The notes under the pieces: generated by a model | Seen by the model: only the letters and a program-made list of their open reading frames with translations | The model's database searches: none | Told to the model about the DNA's origin: nothing | Shown here: positions 29,859 through 43,418 of the stretch, piece after piece | Numbering within the stretch: position 1 is the stretch's first letter | Layout of the letters: each line of letters opens with the position of its first letter | Origin: Bacteroidota bacterium | Lineage (GTDB): Bacteria; Bacteroidota; Bacteroidia; Palsa-965 | Assembly: GCA_020402865.1 (NCBI GenBank) | Contig: JADBYT010000021.1 | Span: 7,263 to 71,262, forward strand | Reading direction: 5' to 3' | Length of the DNA: 64,000 bases | Position numbers and translations under genes: made by a program

Positions 29859-32800
29859 ATGATGCATGGCACGAACAGCGCACCCGGAAACCGCCCCGCC
29901 ATTAACAGAATACCGGTACATTTGTGCGTGCAAAATTTCACCGTTTACAAATCTTCGGCCGGATCGGGTAAAACTTTTACACTGGTAAAGGAATACCTTA
30001 AACTGGCATTGGCCGACGAGGCCGATCCGCCGCAGGTGTACAAGCATATTCTGGCGGTGACATTTACCAATAAGGCCGCGGCAGAAATGAAACAGCGTAT
30101 CATTTCGGCCCTCAAGGAATTGTCGCATGCACAGTCGGGCAAACCCTCTGCCATGGCTCAGGCGCTGGGCAGCGAACTCCTGCTCGACCCGTTTACACTG
30201 GCCGACAGGGCGCAACGTGTGCTAAAAGCAATTCTGCACAACTATACCGACTTTGCCATTGGTACCATTGATGCGTTTGTGCACAGGATTGTGCGCGCCT
30301 TTGCATTCGACCTGCACCTGCCTGTGAACTTTGAAGTGGAAACCGATGCTGACAAGCTGTTGCGGCAGGCGGTTGATCTGCTTATCGGCCGCATTGGCAG
30401 CGACGAACAGCTTACCGAAGTGCTCGTGCAGTTTGCCGAAGCCAAAACGGAAGAAGACCGCAACTGGCAAATTGAACAGGAGCTGCTCACTACGGCACGC
30501 CACCTGCTTGGTGAAGAAGGTGCTGCCAAAGCCGAGCGCCTGCGTAATCTTTCGCTGAACGACTTTCTCGGGTTCCGCGATACACTGCGGAAATCAACCG
30601 AAGCATTCAAAACCTTGATAAAACAAACAGCCGCAAAAGGTGTGCAGCACATTGAACTTTCGGGGATACCGGTTTCGGCATTTTATCACGGCAGCAGCGG
30701 AGTGCCCAAATGGTTCGACGATCTGGCCCAAGGTACGCTTGAAAAGCTGGCCGATTACAGCAGTTATGTAAAACATAGTTTCGAAGAAGACAAATGGTAT
30801 TCGGCCAAAACGCCGGCGGCGCAAAAGGCGGCAATTGATGAACTGAAGCCGCAACTCAGCGAACTGTATGCAAAGCTGCTGGCCTTACGCGATAAGCATT
30901 ACGGCACGTATTTAATACACACGCTGCTGCTGAAAAACATCTATGCCATTGCCGCACTCAACGAAATAGAAAAACTCATTTTCAGTTTCCGCGCCGATCA
31001 GAACATTGTACATATTTCTGAATTCAATCGGATTATTTCAAAAATTGTGTTTGCCGAGCCCGTGCCGTTTATTTACGAACGCCTGGGCGAACGCTACACC
31101 AATTACCTGATCGACGAGTTTCAGGATACATCGGTGCTGCAATGGCAAAACCTGCTTCCGCTCATTGACAATGCTTTGGGAGGAGGAAATTTCACGATGC
31201 TCGTGGGCGACGGGAAACAGGCTATTTACCGCTGGCGCGGCGGCGAAGTGGAACAGTTTGCCCGCCTGCCGTATGTGAAACAGGATGCCGAAAACGAAAT
31301 TATTGCTGATCGCCAGCAAAGTTTAATACGCAACTATCGCGGGTTGCAGCTTGCCCGGAATTTCAGGAGTAAAACTGAAATTGTACAGTTTAACAATGCA
31401 CTTTTCCGCTTGCTGGCGCAGGATTTAACGGCAGGCTATCAGGATATATACGATAAGTTAGAGCAGGAATCAGACACCGCCAACACAGGAGGCAGTGTGT
31501 GTATTGAGCGGCTTGTACCCGAAAAAGGCGACGACGAAAAAGAGCTTCATGTGCAGCGCACGCTTGAAAAAGTGCATGAATTACGCGCACAAGGCTGGGA
31601 ATTGCAGGACATAGCCATACTCACCCGTACCAACAACGAAGGCTCGCGCATTGCGGCGGCACTGCTTGATGCAGGTTATCCGGTTATTTCGTCGGAGTCG
31701 TTGCTCATCAGCCGCTCGCCTGCCGTTGGCTTTGTGCTGGCGGTGCTGCGCATTATCGAACTTCCGTCTGACGCGATTGCGCGCACGCAAATGCTCGGAT
31801 TCTTAGTAAATACCGGCCGTATTCACGGCACATTGCACAGCCTGCTGGAGGAAGCTGCAAAGGACGGACTCGCCGCATTACTGCAAAAGCATAACCTTAT
31901 TTTCAACGAGCTGGTACTGGCACGCATGCCTTTGTATCAGCGTTGCGAAGAAATTATTCGCCGGTTCAGACTGGATAATGAACCAGATGCCTACCTGCTT
32001 TTTTTCCTCGATGAAGTGCTGAGTTTTGGAATGGGACGGGGCAATAATCCCGCCGATTTTCTGAACTGGTGGACAGATCGCAGCTACAAGGCTTCTGTGG
32101 TAGTGCCCGAAGGCATGAATGCCGTGCGCGTAATGACCATTCACAAATCAAAAGGACTGGAATTTCCGGTGGTAATTTTCCCGTTTGCCAATTGGAAATT
32201 CGAAACAAGCCGTAAGGATTTGTGGATTGATCTGGATGACGAGGCACTGCCCGGACTGGAAACTGCAGTGGTTTCTGTAAACGAAAGTTTGCTGCACACT
32301 TCTTATGCCGCGCAATATGAAGAAGAGCGCAACAAATCGCTGCTCGATCATTTGAATGTGCTGTATGTGGCGCTTACACGACCTGAACACCGGCTTTATG
32401 TTTTTACCGGACGCAGCGGCAAAGATGCAGGCACGGAACTGAAAACAGCGTCAGACTGCTTTGCGCGTTTTCTGACAGCCACCGGCGAAGATGCTGAAGA
32501 AACCGTGTATCTTCTCGGCGAAGAAACACCACCTTCGGGGCAGCAACGCAGGCCGGGCGAGTTTTTGAACACCGGCGCTGCAAAAGTTACCGACTGGACC
32601 GAGCGCATAAGCATACGTTCACATGCCCGTGAGCTTTGGACAGACGAGAAAGAGCAGCCGGGCGATAAACACAAGTTGCTGCGCCTGCTTCTCAGTCATT
32701 GCCGCACAGCTGACGATGTGCAGGATGCTGCCCGCCGACTTGTGCTTGAAGGCGTGGCGGAAGACACACAGGCCTTTCTGCTTGCGCATGAAGCCACTCA

Positions 32801-33077
32801 ACTCATACGCCAACCCGCTTTGCAACCGTTTTTTGATGCCGCCAGCCCTATCAGCTCAAACGCCGAACTGCTGTTGCCTGCATCAGGCAGCATAAAGATT
32901 GACCGCGTAACCGACACCGGCGAAAAACTGCTGCTGCTGAATTTTGTTACAGGCATGCCCGCAAAACCGCGAAGAGAAATACTTTTGGCGGCAGCAGCAT
33001 TGGAAAAGAAGAAAAAAACAGAAGCCTGGTTGTATTTTTTGCAGGACGGGAAGTTGTGTAAGGCCACAGAGGTCTGA
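29859..33077 (+). CDS. UvrD/Rep-family ATP-dependent helicase, AddA/RecB-like (helicase-nuclease).
   Basis: 1072 aa. Walker A VYKSSAGSGKTFTL, UvrD motifs (AVTFTNKAAAEMKQR, DEFQDTS, VGDGKQAIYRWRGG, MTIHKSKGLEFPVV, VLYVALTR), and a long C-terminal extension. The true start may be downstream of 29859. Confidence 0.8.
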   Translation: MMHGTNSAPGNRPAINRIPVHLCVQNFTVYKSSAGSGKTFTLVKEYLKLALADEADPPQVYKHILAVTFTNKAAAEMKQRIISALKELSHAQSGKPSAMAQALGSELLLDPFTLADRAQRVLKAILHNYTDFAIGTIDAFVHRIVRAFAFDLHLPVNFEVETDADKLLRQAVDLLIGRIGSDEQLTEVLVQFAEAKTEEDRNWQIEQELLTTARHLLGEEGAAKAERLRNLSLNDFLGFRDTLRKSTEAFKTLIKQTAAKGVQHIELSGIPVSAFYHGSSGVPKWFDDLAQGTLEKLADYSSYVKHSFEEDKWYSAKTPAAQKAAIDELKPQLSELYAKLLALRDKHYGTYLIHTLLLKNIYAIAALNEIEKLIFSFRADQNIVHISEFNRIISKIVFAEPVPFIYERLGERYTNYLIDEFQDTSVLQWQNLLPLIDNALGGGNFTMLVGDGKQAIYRWRGGEVEQFARLPYVKQDAENEIIADRQQSLIRNYRGLQLARNFRSKTEIVQFNNALFRLLAQDLTAGYQDIYDKLEQESDTANTGGSVCIERLVPEKGDDEKELHVQRTLEKVHELRAQGWELQDIAILTRTNNEGSRIAAALLDAGYPVISSESLLISRSPAVGFVLAVLRIIELPSDAIARTQMLGFLVNTGRIHGTLHSLLEEAAKDGLAALLQKHNLIFNELVLARMPLYQRCEEIIRRFRLDNEPDAYLLFFLDEVLSFGMGRGNNPADFLNWWTDRSYKASVVVPEGMNAVRVMTIHKSKGLEFPVVIFPFANWKFETSRKDLWIDLDDEALPGLETAVVSVNESLLHTSYAAQYEEERNKSLLDHLNVLYVALTRPEHRLYVFTGRSGKDAGTELKTASDCFARFLTATGEDAEETVYLLGEETPPSGQQRRPGEFLNTGAAKVTDWTERISIRSHARELWTDEKEQPGDKHKLLRLLLSHCRTADDVQDAARRLVLEGVAEDTQAFLLAHEATQLIRQPALQPFFDAASPISSNAELLLPASGSIKIDRVTDTGEKLLLLNFVTGMPAKPRREILLAAAALEKKKKTEAWLYFLQDGKLCKATEV

Positions 33078-33099: not shown

Positions 33100-33132
33100 T
33101 AAAAAACCGGTTCCTGCAAAAGCAGAAACCGG
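33100..33132 (-). terminator. Intrinsic terminator for the caspase/TIR–STING operon (read on the - strand).
   Basis: Compound hairpin CCGGTTcCTGCaaaaGCAGaAACCGG at 33107–33132 preceded on the + strand by AAAAAAA (33100–33106), which is a U-tract on the - strand transcript. It lies 43 nt after the stop of the 33175..34113 gene. Confidence 0.55.
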
Positions 33133-33174
33133 CAGCACACAGCAATCACAAATACACATCGGAAGGAATAAGGA

Positions 33175-34113
33175 TTACTGGTGCATTGGGGTGACATGAA
33201 CTATTTTTTGGCATAACGTATCACGTGCGATGTAATGTGAAAGTACCCGGGAAAAATTATTCATTTCACGAATTATCACTTCCTCTTTTGATTCGTTATT
33301 GCCAAAATAGGTTTGGGGAAAAAGCATGTTAATGGCTGCTTCAATTGCTAAGGGCGAAGAAGGTATTATACAAAACTCAATGCGGTTATCAGGAACACGC
33401 AAGTTCCGGTATGCCGCAAATACAGCCCCTTTGCACTCACAAATTATCTTCTTCCATTTTGACTGTGAAAAAAAATAATCAACTGCCGCAAGCGTATGAT
33501 CGTGAATCGAATTGGAAACTAAAATGTGTAGTGATAACTGTTTAATGTTGGCGCCCAATGCATAATTCGGGAGGTTTTCTTTCAGATACACAACCAATGG
33601 CGAAACACAATTAATGTAATACTCATAGGCCAGCACACCCGATGAAAATTTACTCAAAGCCACATTATCCTGTTGTTTCAGAATCTGATTGCGAATAGTA
33701 TTCACCACAGAAAGTAAGCTCAATCTGTCTTCATCAGCTGCACCGGTATTAAACTTTAAAACTACCACACCATCAAGATCAGATGGCAGTTTCACCTTTT
33801 CGTCGCAAATAAGAAATGTGAAATTGTATCCTTTAGCTCCGTCGAAAAGACCAAACTCATACAATACATTATCGCGTGTTGCTGAGTAAATTTCATTTCT
33901 GTATGCTAACTTATCATCGGCCGTAGCCACAAATATCCCGAAATCATAATAGTTCAGCGATCGTTGTAGAATTTGACTTACAGTTTCACCACTTCTGAAC
34001 ACGCCTTCGTTCCAAAGTGTGGCATCGAGTTCTGGTTTAAGTAATGTTTTTACTTTTTCGGCTGCTGCGAGCCCCTCTTTCGAGGATCCGATAAATATTT
34101 TTAGTGGCACCAT
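33175..34113 (-). CDS. TIR-like domain fused to a STING-like cyclic-dinucleotide-binding domain (CBASS Cap12 / bacterial TIR–STING-like effector).
   Basis: 312 aa, ATG at 34113 confirmed. The N-terminal approx. 140 aa show the COG4271-type TIR-like pattern KIFIGSSKEG…LWNEGVF…GETV…DFGIFVATADD. The C-terminal approx. 160 aa carry SGVLAYEYYINCV…LSLHILVSNS…YRNLR…EFCIIPSSPLAIEAAINM, paralleling the STING CBD elements GLAWSYYIGYL…LYILLPLD…R238… (recalled human and bacterial STING features). The gene is AT-rich. Confidence 0.6.
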   Translation of the reverse strand: MVPLKIFIGSSKEGLAAAEKVKTLLKPELDATLWNEGVFRSGETVSQILQRSLNYYDFGIFVATADDKLAYRNEIYSATRDNVLYEFGLFDGAKGYNFTFLICDEKVKLPSDLDGVVVLKFNTGAADEDRLSLLSVVNTIRNQILKQQDNVALSKFSSGVLAYEYYINCVSPLVVYLKENLPNYALGANIKQLSLHILVSNSIHDHTLAAVDYFFSQSKWKKIICECKGAVFAAYRNLRVPDNRIEFCIIPSSPLAIEAAINMLFPQTYFGNNESKEEVIIREMNNFSRVLSHYIARDTLCQKIVHVTPMHQ

Positions 34114-34116
34114 AAA

Positions 34117-35115
34117 TCAGAACATTCCTTTTTTCGACATTTTCCAATAAAGTTTCCCGGACAAGGTAAGTTCTGCGGCCCCGTTTCTCATGGCTGCCCA
34201 GTATAAGTCTTCTTCCGGCTCGCAAGGTTTAAGCAAACCGGCATCGCGGAGTTTTTTGAACACCTTAAACTTCTTCACGTTTTCAGGATTCATAAATTCT
34301 TTCTCCGTTTCCTCCCAGCTTTTATCCATTTTCACCTTCGAATCAGGTGTAATGAATAACTCAGGAAGCCGATGTAGTTCATTTATAGTCAACCGCGTAT
34401 GTGCTTTCCGAATCAGATGCAACCGGTCTGTATGCGTTTTAAACTGCGGGCGTTGCTGCCAGGCACCAAGCATCTGATCGGCATAATTATATAAACTGGC
34501 AGCAGTAACCCGGCCAAGAATATCAGCAGCACCACCATTTAATCCATCACACAGTATTCCGGTAAAAAGCCCGCCATTGCTGTTTTCCCATGAAAGTTCC
34601 TTTGGGGAGCTTGAGGTAAGAATTGATAGGCCGGGAGAAAGCAGTGCATGTGGAATATCGAGAGATGAAAAGTTACCTAAATGACCGGCATAGCAGCAAT
34701 CCAATATCAGTGTAACCTCTTTTATTTTTCGTTTGGCGAGGGCATCATTTGCCAGCGCAAGAAGTTCGGAAACGGGAAATCCCTCATTAAATTTTTCGGG
34801 ATTCTGAGCCACAAGAAAACCTTCGAGATTATTCTCATAGCCATGTCCTGAAAAATAAAATAAAACACGGTCATCAGGTGTTCGGAACAGGTCGTGAATA
34901 TTTTCTCTCAGTTTCCTTAATGTTACATTCGTAACGGGTGAAGTAATTAGTTTACAATCATAATTTATAGAACCATCATGATGACGACTCAGTAATTTAT
35001 TCATTGCAATTGCATCAGGAACGCTTCCTTTAAGCGGTGAAGTGGCATAATCATTAATGCCAACAATTAAAGCACGGGCCATGAGTTTATGAATTAGTGT
35101 GGAAGCAAACATCAT
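34117..35115 (-). CDS. Caspase-family (peptidase C14, metacaspase/orthocaspase-like) protein with an approx. 130-aa C-terminal extension.
   Basis: 332 aa from the ATG at 35115 (the ORF track begins one codon earlier on TTG). N-terminal RALIVGINDY (metacaspase-like start), catalytic His in FYFSGHG, catalytic Cys in LILDCCYAG. Stop is 3 nt before the TIR–STING start. Confidence 0.7.
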   Translation of the reverse strand: MMFASTLIHKLMARALIVGINDYATSPLKGSVPDAIAMNKLLSRHHDGSINYDCKLITSPVTNVTLRKLRENIHDLFRTPDDRVLFYFSGHGYENNLEGFLVAQNPEKFNEGFPVSELLALANDALAKRKIKEVTLILDCCYAGHLGNFSSLDIPHALLSPGLSILTSSSPKELSWENSNGGLFTGILCDGLNGGAADILGRVTAASLYNYADQMLGAWQQRPQFKTHTDRLHLIRKAHTRLTINELHRLPELFITPDSKVKMDKSWEETEKEFMNPENVKKFKVFKKLRDAGLLKPCEPEEDLYWAAMRNGAAELTLSGKLYWKMSKKGMF

Positions 35116-35185
35116 CAAAACACATTCATAATTTTTCCTCAGTTCCCACTATTTTAAATCCTTAGAACTATGGATTTATTAAAAT

Positions 35186-35818
35186 TTAAGCTAATCCCAT
35201 TTCCACAGCCTTACGTACAAGGCCAAGTGTACCTTTCACACCAAGTTTGGCAATCAGGTTGCGGCGGTGTGTTTCAACGGTGCTGGCGGCAATAAAAAGT
35301 TTTTCGGCAATTTCGGGAGTGGTACATTCTCGGGCAATAAGGCGTAAAATTTCCTCTTCACGCCGTGTGAGTTTCACGTTTTTTATTTCCTCTTTTTTCC
35401 TTTTGCTGCTGCGTATTACAGCCATAATTTCCTGACTGAAATAAATACGCCCTGCGGCAAGTTCCTTAATAGCCAGCACCAATTGTTCAGCACCTCTGGT
35501 TTTGAGAATGTAACCCGACACGCCCACATCAATCAGTTCATCCACATGTTCTGACTGATCGGAATACGTAACAATGAGAATGGGAATATCAGGAAATTCA
35601 ATTCGCATGAGTTTGGCCACTTCAATGCCTGAAATTCCGGGCATACCAATATCAAGCACCAGTACATCGGGCATATGTGCTCTTACCAGAGGCAGCACTT
35701 CATTTCCGTTGTTTGCTTCGGCCACAATACTGATACTGTCGCCGGCAAGGCTTTTCAGTACATCATTGAGGCCATCAATAAACATTTTGTGATCGTCGGC
35801 AATAATTAAGCGTATCAT
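35186..35818 (-). CDS. LuxR/NarL-family two-component response regulator.
   Basis: The internal ATG at 35818 gives MIRLIIADDHKMFIDGL… (receiver domain; Asp in VLDIGMPG) and a C-terminal LuxR HTH (LTRREEEILRLIARECTTPEIAEKLFIAASTVETHRRNLIAKLGV). The ORF-track extension to 35914 overlaps the kinase. Confidence 0.85.
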   Translation of the reverse strand: MIRLIIADDHKMFIDGLNDVLKSLAGDSISIVAEANNGNEVLPLVRAHMPDVLVLDIGMPGISGIEVAKLMRIEFPDIPILIVTYSDQSEHVDELIDVGVSGYILKTRGAEQLVLAIKELAAGRIYFSQEIMAVIRSSKRKKEEIKNVKLTRREEEILRLIARECTTPEIAEKLFIAASTVETHRRNLIAKLGVKGTLGLVRKAVEMGLA

Positions 35819-35828
35819 AAGCGTTGGT

Positions 35829-37901
35829 TCAATGAACAGGAATATCAATTGACACGGATGTTCCGTGACCGGGTTGTGAATCGATGTGGAAAGTGGCGTT
35901 AATCTGTGTGGCACGGTTGCGCAAGCTGGTTAACCCAAGTCCTGAGCGCGACTGTGCTTTGGCTGTGTCAAAACCATTTCCATTGTCTTCCACCATAAGG
36001 TTAATATTTCCATTTTGGCGCTGAAGCTGAATTGTAACTTCCGACGCATTGGCATGACGCAAAATATTGGCCATGAGTTCGCGCACGATTTGATAAATAT
36101 TAAACTCGGTAGCTCCGTCGAGCCTGCTGTTCAGGCCGTTTGCATGAAACTCCACCTGAAGTTTATTGAGGCCGTTAATGTTATTGCATAAATTCTCAAT
36201 GGCTCTCACTAATCCGAAGGTTACCAGTTCGCCTTTATGCAAATCAGCCGCCACAAGCCGCACTTCTTCACAGGCCTCGTCGAGTATTGAATTGGCTTTT
36301 TTCAGTTTTTCAAGTTCTTCGGCCGACAGGCTTCCGGCCATATTTTCCATTAAGTTGTAATACAGTTTTGCGGTAGAAAGTTTAACACCGAGGCTATCGT
36401 GCAGATCCTGAGCAATTCGTTGCCGTTCTTTCTCTTGTGTTTCAAGCATGGTTTGAACGGCCAGTTGTTCCTGGTTGCTAAGCAGGTCTTCAATTTGCTT
36501 TTTGCTTTGCTGATTTCGTTTCTCTACAATCCGGTTTCGATACAATGCAAAAAGAAGGATGAGCAGTAAAATAATTATTACCGTCAGTGCAAGAACAATC
36601 AGATTAATTCGCTCGATGCGGGCTTTCTGATGGTCTCTTTCCTTTTCTAATAAAATTCGTTTTGCCTGCTCCTCCTTGTAAGCGATGGCAATTTCAGAGG
36701 CTTGCTGCGAAATATATTCAAGTGTATCGCGGAGTGCTCCTCCGCTTGCAGCATATCGAAAAGCCTCTGAATAGTTTTGCTTTCTGGCGTGAGCCTCGGA
36801 AAGGCAATCGCTAATTTTCTGAAGCAGAAACAAGTCTCTGATTGAAGCGGCTACTGAATCGGCTTTTACCAGATTTAAAATTGCCTCATCATATTTATTC
36901 TGCCTGATCAGCAACCGGCCAATATTAAAGTAGCAAAGCGAAAGCCCCTGTGCATAATTGGTTTTCTGATTAAACTCAAGCGATTTTCGTATATAGGCAT
37001 CAGCCTGCGAATATTCCCCTTCTTTCTCGTAATACTGGCTGATATTGATCTGCACCACAGCTAATTTATTTTCGAGCTTTAAATCAGAATAAATCGAAAT
37101 AGCTTTATTAAACGCATTTAAAGCAACAGTATCACGATTTTCCTTGAGGTAAATTCCGCCAAGATGGTTTAGTATTTCGGCCTGATATTTCTTGGTTTTA
37201 AATGTGTTGGCAATCAGCAGTGCTTCTTCAAACACACCAGCAGCACGGTTGTTTAAATTTTGTCGTTCATACACCTGCCCCATTCCCTGCAGGGCTTTAA
37301 ACCGCATAAGGCTGTCGTTTATTCGCTCAGCAGTATCGAGTACCTGCTGATAGAATGATAATGCTTTGGGATAATTGGAACGTTTCAAATGAATATTTGC
37401 GGCTCCTACCAACGCCTGCACCATTTGCTCCTTTTTATCAGGCATTGTGCCCCATATCCGGGCAGCTTCATTGGTATAATGTAACGCAGAATCATAGCTG
37501 CCTCTGTTTTTCAGGATAACTGAAAGCATATATCGGTCTCGCGCCATGCCGTGCATGTACTTGGCATTATCATCAATTGCCTTTGCGTTACGGTAGTAAT
37601 AAATTGCCGAATCGGTATTGCCGGTATTTTCAGCCAAACGCGCATACTGACAATAGGCATCGGCTTTGAGTAACCGGGTTTGTGGTGTGCCAGCCTGCGC
37701 AATTACCTGCCGAAGTATTTCGCGGCTCTTTGCCGGATCGCCCTCGCGCAACGCATAAGCACTATCAAGATTGCGGGCCAGTCTGGCTGAATCAGCAGAA
37801 ACGGAAACAGCTGACGAAGGCTGATCAGACTGTGTACAGCCTGAAAGTGATACAATAAAGCTGCAAGGAATAAATAGAAGTATAAACAAGATAAATTGCA
37901 T
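35829..37901 (-). CDS. Sensor histidine kinase with a periplasmic/N-terminal TPR array, one TM helix, HisKA_3 and HATPase_c domains.
   Basis: ATG at 37901 (MQFILFILLFIPCSFIVSLSGC, lipoprotein-like signal). Multiple TPR-like repeats, TM LIVLALTVIIILLLILLFAL, H-box RIAQDLHDSLG, ATPase motifs (MVEDNGNGF, GLGLTSLRNRATQI). Followed 10 nt later by the LuxR regulator. Confidence 0.8.
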   Translation of the reverse strand: MQFILFILLFIPCSFIVSLSGCTQSDQPSSAVSVSADSARLARNLDSAYALREGDPAKSREILRQVIAQAGTPQTRLLKADAYCQYARLAENTGNTDSAIYYYRNAKAIDDNAKYMHGMARDRYMLSVILKNRGSYDSALHYTNEAARIWGTMPDKKEQMVQALVGAANIHLKRSNYPKALSFYQQVLDTAERINDSLMRFKALQGMGQVYERQNLNNRAAGVFEEALLIANTFKTKKYQAEILNHLGGIYLKENRDTVALNAFNKAISIYSDLKLENKLAVVQINISQYYEKEGEYSQADAYIRKSLEFNQKTNYAQGLSLCYFNIGRLLIRQNKYDEAILNLVKADSVAASIRDLFLLQKISDCLSEAHARKQNYSEAFRYAASGGALRDTLEYISQQASEIAIAYKEEQAKRILLEKERDHQKARIERINLIVLALTVIIILLLILLFALYRNRIVEKRNQQSKKQIEDLLSNQEQLAVQTMLETQEKERQRIAQDLHDSLGVKLSTAKLYYNLMENMAGSLSAEELEKLKKANSILDEACEEVRLVAADLHKGELVTFGLVRAIENLCNNINGLNKLQVEFHANGLNSRLDGATEFNIYQIVRELMANILRHANASEVTIQLQRQNGNINLMVEDNGNGFDTAKAQSRSGLGLTSLRNRATQINATFHIDSQPGHGTSVSIDIPVH

Positions 37902-37984
37902 GGAAAAGAAATAATGTGGATATGGGAGTTCATACTTATGAACTCCCATAACAGATTGAATGGATCGTGAGGGCATTGGCTGCA

Positions 37985-38350
37985 TTACACAAAAATGATG
38001 GGGCGAACCTGATCTTCATTATCGCCCTGACTCACCACCACATTTACGCTGGCAGAAGAAAGCAGTGTGCTGCCATCCTTTACCATTACATTAATTTCAC
38101 GGGTGGTGCTGAAATCAATGGCTGTTACAGGAATCTGATGGTTTACAAGCGATGCCTGACGCAGCGCAGTGCTGTTTTGCGTTACATAAGCAGTAACTTC
38201 AACCGGATTAACTGTAAGATCGGCTGGCAGTGCGTAGGATTGCGCCACATAGCCCGATTTTGAAAACAGTGAGGTCAGGTAAAGGTAGTGTTCAGTACTA
38301 CCATTTACAGCTTTAGTTACAAGCTGAATAACAGGGTTTTGCATTGACAT
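37985..38350 (-). CDS. Hypothetical protein, possibly spurious.
   Basis: The ORF-track ORF starts on a non-ATG codon. The first ATG gives MSMQNPVIQLVTKAVNG…, about 121 aa, Ser/Thr/Val-rich with no recognisable motif. My coordinate count is ±1 nt uncertain here. Confidence 0.25.
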   Translation of the reverse strand: MSMQNPVIQLVTKAVNGSTEHYLYLTSLFSKSGYVAQSYALPADLTVNPVEVTAYVTQNSTALRQASLVNHQIPVTAIDFSTTREINVMVKDGSTLLSSASVNVVVSQGDNEDQVRPIIFV

Positions 38351-39189: not shown

Positions 39190-41196
39190 TTATTCGATCA
39201 CGAGCGGCTGCTTTTCGCGCCCACCATCAGCATAATCCACTGCTAGTAAATAGTAGCCGGAAGAAAGGCCATTAAGTTCGATTGTAATTTTACCGGATGC
39301 GGCAGCACAGCTTACTGATTTTACAACTTTGCCCTGTGCATCGTAAATAGTAATGCTTTGCGGGTTTTCTCGGCCAGGTGTAATTTCAACACGGTCTTTT
39401 GCCGGATTGGGAAATACAAACAAGGTTTGTCCGGCTGGTGTGGTTTGGGCAAGCCGCTGATTAAAATCTCCGGCGTCAACCGAAGTACAATATACATTCA
39501 TACAATCGGTAATTAAATTACCAAACGGATCGTACACACAACTTATAGCGGTAAGGCACACATTGTAGGTTCCGGGATTGCTGTATGTATGAAAAGTAAC
39601 AGGCGTAAACGACTCGGTGCTTCCATCACCAAAATCCCATATATAATTGCATAATGTGCCGTTAGTCACGGTGATATCCTGCATAAATACATGGGAATAG
39701 CCTGATCCCATTGGCCAGAAGAACGCATTCACCTCGCAGTTTACCGAAGACGGATCGGTTGGGCAAACCGTTACCGGTTTACACACTTGCGTGGTGCAGG
39801 CCGGGCCACTTGAGGGTTGTGCCACAATAGTGAGACATACATTGTAGGTGCGTGAAGTAGTTGTAAGGAAAAGATGGCCGGGGTTTTGCTGATTAGAAGT
39901 AGTACCGTCGCCAAAATCCCAGTGCCACGAAACCACATTGGTGCCACCTGTATTGGTGCCACTGAAGGCAACCGGATTACAAAGTGAGGTAGTAAAATCG
40001 GGCTGTGCATTGCAAGGACAATTTACAGGTGCAATATTTACTGTTTGGGTAGCCATACAACTCTGCCTGAAATCACTGATATGCTTTACGGTAAGTGTAT
40101 AGGTGCCGGCCAACTGTTCGGTGACATTTGGAATTGAAAAAGCCGAACCAAATTTACTGAATCCATTAGGGCCACTCCAGCTATATACATAATCATTACA
40201 ACTCAACACAGGCGAGGCACTGAGATTAAGAACTCCTCCGCATTGGGGATTTGTGTTTCCGCTTATGCTAAATGCTGGTGGAGAAGAATTAATAGTGATC
40301 CGAACTTTTTGACCACCATCAGCACATATTTCACAGTTTTCATTGGGTAATACTATTAATGCCTCATACTCTTGTGTAGTACACGGACTAACAGTTACTA
40401 CGGCTCCTTGCGTACTGCTAAGTCCAGGAGCGGGTGTCCATTTCACAATTGCATTTGGTGGAAGATTATTTACAGTAAGTGTAGCAGACTGACACCAGGT
40501 TATATTGTTTGTGCTGGCTGTAATAAATGCGCCGGATAAGGTGGAACTAATTTCATTTACTACTACTTTATCCACCTGAATTTCCAACTGATTCATATTG
40601 TTTCCCAGGTTTCCGTCGCCGCGTGAAGGATAAATCCATAAGCGATTATAGTTTGATGAAGCCTGAAACTGATACGATACCAGTGTCCAGCTGGGGTAGC
40701 TTACCGAGGAAGATGCAATTATCTGCGAGGAAACAGATGGAATGGCATAATTGGCATTGGAGGACGGTGGGGAGTAAACAGGCAGATTATTGGCTGCTTT
40801 CACATTCATTCGTCCGTTTGTCTGATTGCCAAAATTGCCATTGTTTTTTACCCAGAAACATACCTGATACTTTTTTCCATTCTCGAAATTGTAACACGTA
40901 TGTATTCCTTCCCCGATTCCCTCCGCAGCCCACATCCATACCGAACGCTGATTGTTATCTGGAGGGCAATCGGTATTAAATAAAGAGGGATTGCCATGTG
41001 ATACAAACCATTTATCTACAGTGAGGCTTGGGGAGTTCATCTGGTTCATATTACCGGGTGCAGATATAGACGAGAACCCTCCGTTTTCTATACATGTGCA
41101 GCCTTGCGCGCTTGCCTTTTGTGAACCGGCGCTGAGAAAAAGAATCAACAATGCACTTATTGCTGACTTTCTCTGAAAGAAATTATTTGTTTTCAT
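39190..41196 (-). CDS. Secreted multi-PKD-domain protein with a type-A T9SS C-terminal sorting domain.
   Basis: 668 aa with signal peptide. Two WxFGDG…PGTYNVCLT PKD motifs. C-terminal approx. 80 aa LFVFPNPAKDRVEI…ITIYDAQGKVVKSV…GYYLL resemble the Por-secretion CTD (TIGR04183-like, recalled). Confidence 0.7.
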   Translation of the reverse strand: MKTNNFFQRKSAISALLILFLSAGSQKASAQGCTCIENGGFSSISAPGNMNQMNSPSLTVDKWFVSHGNPSLFNTDCPPDNNQRSVWMWAAEGIGEGIHTCYNFENGKKYQVCFWVKNNGNFGNQTNGRMNVKAANNLPVYSPPSSNANYAIPSVSSQIIASSSVSYPSWTLVSYQFQASSNYNRLWIYPSRGDGNLGNNMNQLEIQVDKVVVNEISSTLSGAFITASTNNITWCQSATLTVNNLPPNAIVKWTPAPGLSSTQGAVVTVSPCTTQEYEALIVLPNENCEICADGGQKVRITINSSPPAFSISGNTNPQCGGVLNLSASPVLSCNDYVYSWSGPNGFSKFGSAFSIPNVTEQLAGTYTLTVKHISDFRQSCMATQTVNIAPVNCPCNAQPDFTTSLCNPVAFSGTNTGGTNVVSWHWDFGDGTTSNQQNPGHLFLTTTSRTYNVCLTIVAQPSSGPACTTQVCKPVTVCPTDPSSVNCEVNAFFWPMGSGYSHVFMQDITVTNGTLCNYIWDFGDGSTESFTPVTFHTYSNPGTYNVCLTAISCVYDPFGNLITDCMNVYCTSVDAGDFNQRLAQTTPAGQTLFVFPNPAKDRVEITPGRENPQSITIYDAQGKVVKSVSCAAASGKITIELNGLSSGYYLLAVDYADGGREKQPLVIE

Positions 41197-41511: not shown

Positions 41512-42240
41512 TTACATCAGCAATATTCGGACAATAGCGGCTCCTCCCATAAAAAGCGAACCTAAAAAAGAAGCTATCATAATGAGCCAACTGAATACAA
41601 GAAACAAAACGGATAATCCACTTCCTCCTGTTACGGCTTTGTTGTTTACCTCTTTAACTTCATTAACTACTGATGATGTTCTTTTGATGCCTGCAATGGA
41701 AAAAATTAATGCGCTGAGAAATGCAATAAAGGAAATAACTGTAAGCCCAACAAGTAAATAGGTACCAATAGTCAGAATCATTAATACAACGGCAAGTACA
41801 AACAGCGTAATGGAAAGCATAAAGTATATTTGCGACCATTTCCGGTTTTCTTCCAGCGAGGCCTTCTTTGCTTTTGAGCGTTCGGGCTTAACAATAAAAG
41901 TATCGGCAGGTATTCGCCGTTGAGCTTCTGTAACAAGCTGAACAGTTGTGATTGCATCTTGCTGTGCAGGCTGTATCGTTTCATTGGCCGGTTTGAGGCC
42001 ATCAGAAGCCGGATAATCAACCACGGCAGTCGTATCGGGAATACCGATATTTTCACTTGTTGTTTTGCAATCCTGCGCAGTGGCATTTGCCGGAATGTTT
42101 TGCTGCACATTATTGTGGTTTCCACCAGACTCGGTTGTTGAAATATACCAGCCTTTGCGGTAGCGACGCTTTTCAATATGATTCATGCTACAGCTACCGA
42201 GCATTAACGTAAACAGGATGAGTAATGACAGCGCTTTCAT
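41512..42240 (-). CDS. Lipoprotein-signal protein with a conserved N-terminal HIEKRRYRKGWY motif, a low-complexity linker and a C-terminal multi-TM domain. Paralog A.
   Basis: 242 aa, MKALSLLILFTLMLGSCS lipobox, three predicted C-terminal TM helices. Paralogous to 42663..43418. Confidence 0.45.
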   Translation of the reverse strand: MKALSLLILFTLMLGSCSMNHIEKRRYRKGWYISTTESGGNHNNVQQNIPANATAQDCKTTSENIGIPDTTAVVDYPASDGLKPANETIQPAQQDAITTVQLVTEAQRRIPADTFIVKPERSKAKKASLEENRKWSQIYFMLSITLFVLAVVLMILTIGTYLLVGLTVISFIAFLSALIFSIAGIKRTSSVVNEVKEVNNKAVTGGSGLSVLFLVFSWLIMIASFLGSLFMGGAAIVRILLM

Positions 42241-42662: not shown

Positions 42663-43418
42663 TCAAACAAATTCGCTGAGAATAATAAATGGCATTAACA
42701 CCAATAGCACAAGAAACACAGCTACCATCACAGCGCCAAGTGCGATCATTGCCACCAGCGAACCTCTCAGGTTACGTGCGGCTTTTTCGGGTGTGTGCGT
42801 ACCACGATGACGCTGTACAAGATCAATAATACCTGCTATTAACAGTGCAAGACCCAATAAAAACGAAAAGAACCATAAAAACGGGGTAGCCAATAATAGA
42901 AAGAAGGTAACCACAGTAATTAACACCAAACCAACAGCTATTTTCACTGCCGGATGAATACTTGCCGCAATATTCCGGGTTTCGTCGAGCGTAGGAATAT
43001 GCGGATATCTGTTCACCGGCATTTTCGACGATAGAATGCTGCGTTTACTTTCCTCTGCCTGCACTTGTTTTGTGTCTGAAACATTTCGATTATTATTCTC
43101 TGTTTTGGCTGTTTGGTTGTCTGAACCCGCCTGTGGAGGCATACAGCTGTTCTGTTCACAAGCAGTTGCTGAATCCGTATTTTCAGCGATGATATTTTCC
43201 GATGCCGTAACGGTTTTTACCAATGCTTCCGTTGCAGCCGTTTTTTCGTCGGAATTAATATCCGTAATTGCAGTGTTGGGTGAAACTTTTTCACTGACCT
43301 TGCTGCGGTTAGTATTGCTTACATACCAGCCTTTACGGTACTTGCGCTGTTCGATATGCAACGAGCTGCAGCTGCTGAGAAAAAATGTGATAATAAAAAG
43401 TGCGAGAAAATTTTTCAT
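42663..43418 (-). CDS. Lipoprotein-signal protein with an N-terminal HIEQRKYRKGWY motif and a C-terminal multi-TM domain. Paralog B.
   Basis: 251 aa, MKNFLALFIITFFLSSCS lipobox. Same domain order as 41512..42240. Confidence 0.45.
   Translation of the reverse strand: MKNFLALFIITFFLSSCSSLHIEQRKYRKGWYVSNTNRSKVSEKVSPNTAITDINSDEKTAATEALVKTVTASENIIAENTDSATACEQNSCMPPQAGSDNQTAKTENNNRNVSDTKQVQAEESKRSILSSKMPVNRYPHIPTLDETRNIAASIHPAVKIAVGLVLITVVTFFLLLATPFLWFFSFLLGLALLIAGIIDLVQRHRGTHTPEKAARNLRGSLVAMIALGAVMVAVFLVLLVLMPFIILSEFV

Follow-up and report, generated by a model that had tools for sequence, protein, structure and literature searches.

A type IV Thoeris-family caspase in an apparently exchanged cassette with a two-component system and a TIR-STING protein

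The closest described counterparts of the protein considered here are the caspase-like effectors of type IV Thoeris, a form of antiphage defence for which two gene pairs, PsTIR/PsCaspase and EcTIR/EcCaspase, have been validated (Rousset et al. 2025, bioRxiv 10.1101/2024.10.24.620036). In the characterised systems the TIR protein makes the signal N7-cyclic ADP-ribose (N7-cADPR), and the effector is a promiscuous, arginine-specific protease with EF-Tu and many other proteins among its substrates, whose action aborts phage infection. Cys129 of PsCaspase is essential, and the C-terminal domain of the effector has been hypothesised to bind N7-cADPR at the dimer interface (Rousset et al. 2025, bioRxiv 10.1101/2024.10.24.620036). 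Here we describe a caspase gene, and the TIR-STING gene that directly follows it, in a 64,000-nucleotide (nt) stretch of a Bacteroidota bacterium (contig JADBYT010000021.1, positions 7,263 to 71,262). This whole stretch is called the window below, and all coordinates are positions within it unless a locus number is given.

Our preferred reading, to which we give a probability of about 0.7, is that a known effector family has been placed in a new wiring: a Thoeris-family caspase with a ligand-gated C-terminal domain, carried in an exchanged five-gene cassette, with the TIR-STING protein as its partner. The features of the caspase gene on which this reading leans are as follows.

34117..35082, minus strand: caspase-like protease gene, 321 amino acids (aa) plus stop, from the probable true start (supported by the starts of homologues and by the EcCaspase alignment)
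34468..35082, minus strand: Peptidase_C14 domain, residues 1-205 (Pfam E 8e-18)
34843-34845, minus strand: codon of catalytic His80, invariant in the family alignment
34699-34701, minus strand: codon of Asp128, invariant in the family alignment
34693-34695, minus strand: codon of catalytic Cys130, invariant in the family alignment
34120..34467, minus strand: family-specific C-terminal domain, residues 206-321, winged-helix-like, the presumed ligand sensor

The open frame itself extends to a TTG at 35118 (34117..35118, 333 aa), and its first ATG lies at 35115, which a first-pass annotation of this DNA gave as the end of the gene. Homologues, 315-321 aa long, begin at the equivalent of Met13 (MARALIVG), so the gene most likely spans 34117-35082, and residues are numbered here from that methionine.

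The window caspase aligns with EcCaspase (L099:4413-5378) from end to end, residues 1-321 against 1-321, at 37% identity (E 6e-65). This homology places it in the caspase-like effector family of type IV Thoeris (ThsE / Ths-Caspase). EcCaspase, taken from an E. coli locus that matches the cloned EcTIR, served as our reference for a validated effector; its gene adjoins a TIR gene that matches the cloned EcTIR of Rousset et al. at 100% identity over its first 399 nt. The N-terminus of PsCaspase (MRKALVVGI) also resembles the family consensus. The 651 database relatives, nearly all 315-321 aa long, span 95-96% of the query, which means that conservation in the family extends to the C-terminal part. 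In a scan of genome contigs with the caspase alone there was one true relative, the matches in Streptomyces being to the caspase domain only. The first-pass annotation had called the C-terminal extension uncharacterised, which is an overstatement, since the protein belongs to an experimentally characterised family and the extension is that family's hallmark domain.

The genomic company of the family was surveyed in 92 loci collected around caspase relatives, with 85 distinct caspases, by clustering the neighbouring genes. The commonest neighbour (62 of the 92 loci) is a protein of 125-140 aa, usually encoded on the same strand and directly upstream. Pfam identifies it as a ThsB-type TIR (ThsB_TIR 1.8e-9); PsTIR and EcTIR, with sequences taken from Table S2 of Rousset et al., match the profile of this cluster at 3e-46 and 6e-42. 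Of the 85 distinct caspases, 58 have a neighbour of this type on the same strand and no more than three genes away. Partners are nonetheless varied, and at least four TIR-like families pair with the caspase: ThsB-like, TIR_2, DUF4062 and a fused TIR_2. The fusion is seen in P0266 from the representative library, a single chain of 836 aa with TIR_2, TPR repeats, caspase and Thoeris C-terminal domain, which strengthens the coupling of TIR and caspase and is in effect type IV Thoeris with a TPR sensor condensed into one protein. A rough neighbour-joining tree puts the caspases linked to two-component systems in one cluster and EcCaspase among the ThsB-linked members.

Several other features of these loci may be recorded. 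The validated EcTIR-EcCaspase pair in L099 (E. coli 165, NZ_CP020509 3886579-3887956) is carried by a lambdoid prophage, with the holin/lysis genes on one side and antiterminator Q on the other, a typical site for a prophage 'moron'. Some Thoeris loci (L038:6366-7337 and L045:8239-9177) hold a tandem pair of caspase paralogues, both of which have the C-terminal domain. In 17 loci a protein of about 160-170 aa, cluster c1, follows the caspase with overlapping stop and start (L006:6921-7430, L009:6945-7427 and 15 others). It has no Pfam or NCBIfam match, occurs in six distinct caspase contexts with no ThsB-type TIR within three genes on the same strand, and lies in L009 ahead of a protein that joins DUF4062 (a TIR-like NADase) to TPR repeats. 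Its motifs (GADQ...GGTADVV) look SLOG/LOG-like, and it may be an unrecognised type IV Thoeris component. The 8xMP 'octameric membrane protein' family (Pfam E 8e-43 at L005:6951-7400) is found directly after the caspase in L011 (6969-7397) and near caspases in L042, L073, L083 and L095. It thus recurs in both TIR-linked and two-component-linked loci, and may be a membrane co-effector; a literature search for '8xMP' returned nothing relevant.

The protease domain appears to be in working order. The motifs quoted in the first-pass annotation (RALIVGINDY, FYFSGHG, LILDCCYAG and a C-terminal string) are all present in the translation, and its view that the catalytic dyad occupies canonical C14 positions in a probably active protease is supported. 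Pfam Peptidase_C14 (PF00656) scores 65.4 bits against a cut-off of 21.4, the PADLOC 'caspase' model matches at 2e-19, and all 53 aligned family members have His80, Asp128 and Cys130, with His80 and Cys130 at the C14 positions. A confident AlphaFold model of the full protein (mean pLDDT, the predicted local confidence, 90.4) has the caspase fold and superposes on MALT1 (Foldseek E 1e-11), yeast metacaspase and caspase-7 (range 1e-11 to 1e-9); a PDB sequence search with the full-length protein found MALT1 as its sole match, at E 0.86. The ratio of nonsynonymous to synonymous divergence (dN/dS) against the related locus L106 is 0.13, which indicates purifying selection. Since the dyad is canonical and invariant and the protein is under such selection, an active protease is likely. 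Asp128 and Cys130 form a D-x-C motif whose spacing, with Asp23 and Glu166 likewise invariant, would suit an acidic S1 pocket like that of arginine-specific paracaspases and metacaspases. The EACC1-associated caspase family (NCBIfam NF047832) was considered and rejected, as its 78.8 bits fall below the cut-off of 140 and nothing beyond the protease domain is matched.

The C-terminal domain is where this family differs from other caspases, and the suggestion in the first-pass annotation that these roughly 130 residues carry no recognisable motif and could be a sensor has held up well. A Pfam search with the last 129 aa alone gave no match at E <= 0.05, and the domain profile found no credible match in PDB (best E 0.65). 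Far from being a common housekeeping domain, it is a conserved module of this family found beside the caspase. Among 1.84 billion representative proteins the profile detected 803 relatives; in the best 150 of these, the full-length ones carry the domain C-terminal to a caspase domain, and none carries it on another effector. The invariants W208, Q210, R211, P212, K215, R225, F243, E257, Y294, G309, Y312 and W313 are all kept in the window protein; the dyad and these C-terminal invariants are likewise kept in all TIR-less relatives. The domain is also the most constrained part of the caspase, with a dN/dS of 0.08 against a close relative compared with 0.14 for the protease domain. Modelled alone (AlphaFold, 30-sequence alignment) it reaches a pLDDT of 88.7, and the top 50 Foldseek matches in PDB are all MarR/PadR-type winged-helix proteins or similarly folded ribosomal proteins. 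The scores are weak (E 0.016-0.2, TM-scores about 0.45), so the model resembles a winged helix weakly and at fold level only. Even so, this is a first fold-level description of the presumed sensor domain of the caspase.

The second element of the preferred reading is the gene that starts 3 nt after the caspase stop. The first-pass annotation had named a TIR-STING neighbour, and its identity is borne out by matches to CAP12-PCTIR_TIR (PF10137, 4e-28), prok_STING (PF20300, 5e-10) and Cap12 in PDB (9lmq, 7e-35); the NCBIfam Cap12 model gives 193.8 bits, below its cut-off of 450.

33175..34113, minus strand: TIR-STING (Cap12-like), 312 aa
about 33748-34101, minus strand: TIR domain
33856-33858, minus strand: codon of catalytic Glu86 of the TIR domain
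about 33193-33648, minus strand: STING domain, with altered pocket residues Cys169, Ala230, Ile249 and Ser253

With SfSTING (F6, S10, W33, R78, N80, E84, D110) as the active-site reference, the NADase residues of the TIR domain are all present, as F7, S11, W34, R80, N82, E86 and D112. The STING pocket is another matter. The residues that read cyclic di-GMP (c-di-GMP) were taken from PcSTING (R233, Y235, D252, T255, F171), and the caspase-linked subclade, consisting of the window protein and the three homologues P0121, P0122 and P0123, was compared with 115 other homologues. Outside the subclade R233 is Arg, D252 is Asp and F171 is Phe in 115 of 115, and T255 is Thr in 113 of 115. Within it, in the order window, P0121, P0122, P0123, the position of R233 holds Ala, Ala, Asn and Arg, that of D252 Ile, Ile, Ile and Leu, that of F171 Cys, Cys, Tyr and Thr, and that of T255 Ser throughout. 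Replacement of the pocket Arg, Asp and Phe is thus confined to the caspase-linked subclade.

The caspase/TIR-STING pair is found in four lineages, those of the window, L106, L012 and L103. Identity of the TIR-STING to that of the window is 95% in L106, 57% in L103 and 43% in L012, the adjacent caspases being 82-94% identical, and falls to about 30% outside the subclade. There the nearest canonical TIR-STING directly follows a CD-NTase, in an island of restriction and abortive-infection genes. Between the window and L106 the dN/dS of TIR-STING is 0.31. The TIR half is without a single amino acid change (dN = 0), and all 16 differences lie in the STING half, with a dN/dS of 0.37. The idea that the gene is a decaying pseudogene was therefore set aside: its open reading frame is intact in four lineages, the ratio is 0.31 and the TIR half is unchanged. 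It is, however, accessory. Loci L002, L100 and L101 are without it, and in them what comes directly after the caspase stop corresponds by homology to what comes directly after the TIR-STING stop in the window, terminator included. In L101 this homology also takes in the last 15 nt of the TIR-STING gene, which slightly favours deletion over insertion; apart from those roughly 15 nt, a tblastn search for TIR-STING remnants in the relatives that lack it found nothing.

Neither of the expected signal makers was found nearby. Profiles of the neighbour families ThsB-like, TIR_2, c1, c9 and 8xMP were run against the six-frame translation of the 64-kb window and detected nothing (at E <= 10 for ThsB-like and TIR_2), and the sole TIR in the window is the Cap12-type domain of TIR-STING. 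Nor is there a CD-NTase among the neighbouring genes and mid-sized open reading frames of the window, or in the L001, L012 and L106 loci; a phmmer search of the window with the CD-NTase that precedes the nearest canonical TIR-STING (in L104) gave nothing.

The third element is the cassette. The caspase is gene four of five, the order being p121, TPR histidine kinase, LuxR regulator, caspase and TIR-STING, and the remaining features are these.

37985..38350, minus strand: p121, small protein of 121 aa counted from MSMQ, first gene of the cassette
35829..37985, minus strand: histidine kinase with TPR repeats, HisKA_3 and HATPase_c, aligning over its full length with the caspase-linked kinases of L005 and L011
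35186..35818, minus strand: LuxR-type response regulator, receiver and GerE domains, 210 aa (Pfam Response_reg 1e-22, GerE 1.5e-15)
33106..33133, minus strand: terminator-like hairpin after TIR-STING, 12-bp stem with 7 G-C pairs and then a T run, ending the caspase/TIR-STING unit

The genes are tightly packed: the p121 stop overlaps the kinase start by 1 nt (TAATG), kinase and regulator are 10 nt apart, and caspase and TIR-STING 3 nt. The same hairpin stands directly after the caspase in relatives without TIR-STING. A sigma-70 promoter scan returned 13 sites against 12.8 expected, Bacteroidota promoters being outside the models of that scan. The small protein p121 has no Pfam match. From an N-terminal lipoprotein-like signal and a second transmembrane segment, we read the TPR region of the kinase as lying outside the cytoplasm. 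The order kinase-regulator-caspase is kept in the syntenic relatives (L001/L012, L002, L100, L101 and L106) and is found again in Roseivirga L005 and in L011, two unrelated genome contexts in which 8xMP follows; a LuxR homologue was found upstream of the caspase in L001, L002, L005, L011, L100 and L101.

Divergence between the window and L106 marks this block off sharply from its surroundings. Synonymous divergence (dS) is 0.06-0.24 in the cassette (p121 0.06, histidine kinase 0.21, response regulator 0.18, caspase 0.24, TIR-STING 0.08) and 0.45-0.88 in both flanks (acetyltransferase, the next gene outward from p121, 0.85; UvrD 0.88; SurE 0.54; LpxB 0.45; SpoIID 0.64). The ranking of relatives is incongruent as well. 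In amino acid identity of the flanking genes L002 is nearer the window (90-95%) than L012 (84-90%), yet it is far more distant in p121 (44% against 79%), histidine kinase (44% against 70%), response regulator (71% against 88%) and caspase (51% against 83%). The comparison with L106, L012 and L002 indicates that a variable cassette (33175-38350) has been replaced by recombination at a fixed chromosomal site. The low dS and the incongruent similarity indicate that two-component system, caspase and TIR-STING belong together.

A few observations concern the surroundings. The UvrD-family helicase that adjoins the cassette (29859-33077, plus strand) is matched by PADLOC GajB models at E 1e-26; it is a conserved syntenic gene, with 72-90% identity in relatives and high dS, and so is probably a housekeeping gene rather than part of a Gabija system. 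On the other side lie two neighbouring paralogues (41512-42240 and 42663-43418, both minus strand) whose products begin like lipoproteins (…SCS.(N/L)HIE.R.YRKGWY…), continue with low-complexity sequence and have transmembrane segments towards the C-terminus; neither has a significant Pfam match. Beside them is a PKD-repeat protein (39190-41196), whose orthologue in L106 carries a Por_Secre_tail signal of the type IX secretion system (T9SS). In L011 a 124-aa protein and a second, shorter Peptidase_C14 protein (L011:1734-2558, 274 aa) that lacks the Thoeris C-terminal domain are encoded just upstream of the kinase/regulator/caspase module.

By analogy with the characterised systems, a small NAD-derived signal, N7-cADPR in those cases, would bind the C-terminal domain of the caspase and switch on an arginine-specific, promiscuous protease, which would cleave EF-Tu and many other proteins and abort phage infection. 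The two-component system would set expression of the caspase/TIR-STING transcript upon an envelope cue, and a TIR-derived nucleotide would then gate the protease. TIR-STING is put forward as the functional partner because it is the sole TIR in the cassette and is apparently co-transcribed with the caspase; its NADase site is intact, its STING pocket is no longer of the c-di-GMP type, and there is no CD-NTase. As to the direction of the partnership, TIR-STING could be the signal source, a second, NAD-depleting effector, or a substrate of the protease.

A number of points weigh against this preferred reading. No ThsB-type TIR lies within 64 kb, so the canonical signal source is either absent or encoded elsewhere. 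L002, L100, L101, L005 and L011 keep kinase, regulator and caspase without any TIR nearby, which means that the caspase does not need TIR-STING and argues against an obligate role as generator. The known activity of Cap12-type TIR domains is hydrolysis of NAD+, and they are not known to make cyclic ADP-ribose signals. At positions 300-303 the syntenic clade has NGxA where the rest of the family has SKxC, so its ligand could differ. The two-component system probably controls caspase expression, but it is conserved adjacency only that speaks for action of the response regulator on the caspase promoter. Defence systems, moreover, are not usually held at one chromosomal site with housekeeping genes on either side. 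Finally, binding of N7-cADPR by the C-terminal domain itself has the standing of a published hypothesis only (bioRxiv 10.1101/2024.10.24.620036).

The alternatives that survive best differ from the preferred reading mainly in what TIR-STING does. It is possible, though we hold this tentatively, that TIR-STING replaces ThsB: the remodelled STING domain would sense a phage product or another nucleotide and drive filament formation, and the TIR domain would make from NAD+ the nucleotide that the caspase reads. Such a role fits the fact that the operon has no other TIR and that TIR-STING is apparently transcribed with the caspase, and pairing with at least four TIR-like families implies that partner swapping is common in this family. 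An intact TIR site with dN = 0 and 16 changes confined to the STING half is also what a sensor would show. That said, relatives function without TIR-STING, characterised Cap12 TIR domains yield ADP-ribose and nicotinamide, and no sequence similarity to type IV ThsB was detected.

A further tentative possibility is that TIR-STING acts in parallel, as a second effector that depletes NAD, its altered pocket reading the same Thoeris-type signal or another one, with the signal maker encoded elsewhere in the genome. Its accessory presence and absence would suit an add-on, and precedent for such an arrangement comes from two sources: Planctomycete loci that carry caspase, c1, ThsB TIR and then a Cap12-type TIR with a different C-terminal domain, and hybrid operons in which type IV Thoeris shares an operon, with synergy, with a second signalling effector system, Pycsar (PMC13069673). 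Set against this are the lack of a generator within 64 kb and the finding that the effectors of the Pycsar/Thoeris hybrid operon are not cross-activated (PMC13069673). The Planctomycete Cap12-type TIR protein was itself considered as a possible divergent STING, and hhalign gave no match.

More elaborate, and to our minds rather unlikely, is a hitherto undescribed hybrid immune pathway in which the periplasm-facing TPR kinase and LuxR regulator arm the caspase and STING has been rewired from c-di-GMP to a TIR/NAD-derived nucleotide (for example N7-cADPR) or a phage cue, so that STING, TIR and caspase form one chain without CD-NTase or ThsB.

Two readings that dissolve the partnership or its immune role are less probable still. 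In the first, caspase and TIR-STING are unrelated neighbours, an orphan Thoeris effector beside an orphan or decaying CBASS (cyclic-oligonucleotide-based antiphage signalling system) effector. Defence genes do cluster, TIR-STING is dispensable in sister lineages, and between the window and L012 it retains 43% identity where the caspase retains 83%. What makes this improbable is the 3-nt spacer and shared terminator, the persistence of the pair in four lineages, the transfer of both genes in one low-dS block, purifying selection on TIR-STING (dN/dS 0.31) with its active site intact, and pocket changes that are systematic and subclade-wide, unlike random decay. In the second, the caspase is a domesticated protease under two-component control that has nothing to do with phage and serves in protein turnover or in programmed death, whether upon envelope stress or at the level of the population. 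The locus is indeed fixed between housekeeping genes across genomes with 50-94% caspase identity, the link to TPR kinase and LuxR regulator is conserved, and most members of the clade are without a TIR. We nevertheless consider it doubtful, as the cassette shows the hypervariability and horizontal exchange that mark a conflict locus, the C-terminal invariants of the defence family are kept, and the recurrent add-ons, TIR-STING and 8xMP, are of defence type.

A protease cascade, in which the activated caspase cuts TIR-STING, for instance in the linker between TIR and STING, and so unleashes the NADase, is very improbable: the two genes do follow one another, apparently in one transcript, the STING pocket no longer looks ligand-competent, and the SAVED-CHAT/PCaspase cascades of type III CRISPR are examples of immune proteins acted on by bacterial caspase-like proteases, but Cap12 TIR activity normally needs STING-driven filaments, so that loss of STING would be expected to inactivate it.

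Type IV Thoeris has been defined as a TIR-caspase pair, and the window locus and its relatives demonstrate that this effector, its sensor invariants intact, is also in circulation where that TIR is lacking. There it travels in a cassette that strains exchange, along with a two-component system and, optionally, TIR-STING or 8xMP, and this poses the question of what activates a Thoeris caspase where ThsB is absent. The TIR-STING in turn is a natural variant with all guanine-reading residues replaced, a handle on the evolution of STING ligand specificity that also informs possible crosstalk between CBASS-type and Thoeris-type parts. Our literature searches found nothing relevant on the combination of TIR-STING, caspase and kinase, and no report of a Thoeris caspase without ThsB, of one embedded in a strain-exchanged two-component cassette, or of one coupled to a CD-NTase-less STING with all c-di-GMP-reading residues replaced.

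The locus may be set beside known systems. With MALT1, metacaspases and caspases (Peptidase C14) the window caspase has the fold and the dyad in common, at 12-17% identity, and differs in its appended part, which is winged-helix-like where theirs are Ig, death or p10 parts. With type IV Thoeris it shares the effector family over its full length, C-terminal domain and dyad included; most relatives adjoin a ThsB-type TIR, whereas the window has none in 64 kb and has instead an upstream TPR histidine kinase and LuxR regulator and a downstream Cap12-type TIR-STING, at a locus that is chromosomal and syntenic rather than in a prophage or defence island. CBASS systems with CdnE and Cap12 TIR-STING (SfSTING, PDB 7un8; PcSTING) have the same two-domain architecture and TIR NADase residues as the window gene. 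The nearest canonical homologue has a CD-NTase directly upstream and the window lacks one, and PcSTING R233, D252 and F171, kept by 115 of 115 others, are Ala, Ile and Cys here. The Pycsar clade F / type IV Thoeris hybrid operons (Liu-DS6; PMC13069673) likewise place a Thoeris caspase in one operon with parts of a second nucleotide-signalling system, but there both systems are complete and do not cross-activate, whereas the window locus has neither ThsB nor CD-NTase. CapH/CapP and CapK/CapS, found upstream of CBASS and other systems, are also regulatory genes ahead of a cell-killing immune operon (PMC13373217); in the window the putative regulators are a membrane kinase with an extracytoplasmic TPR region and a LuxR regulator.

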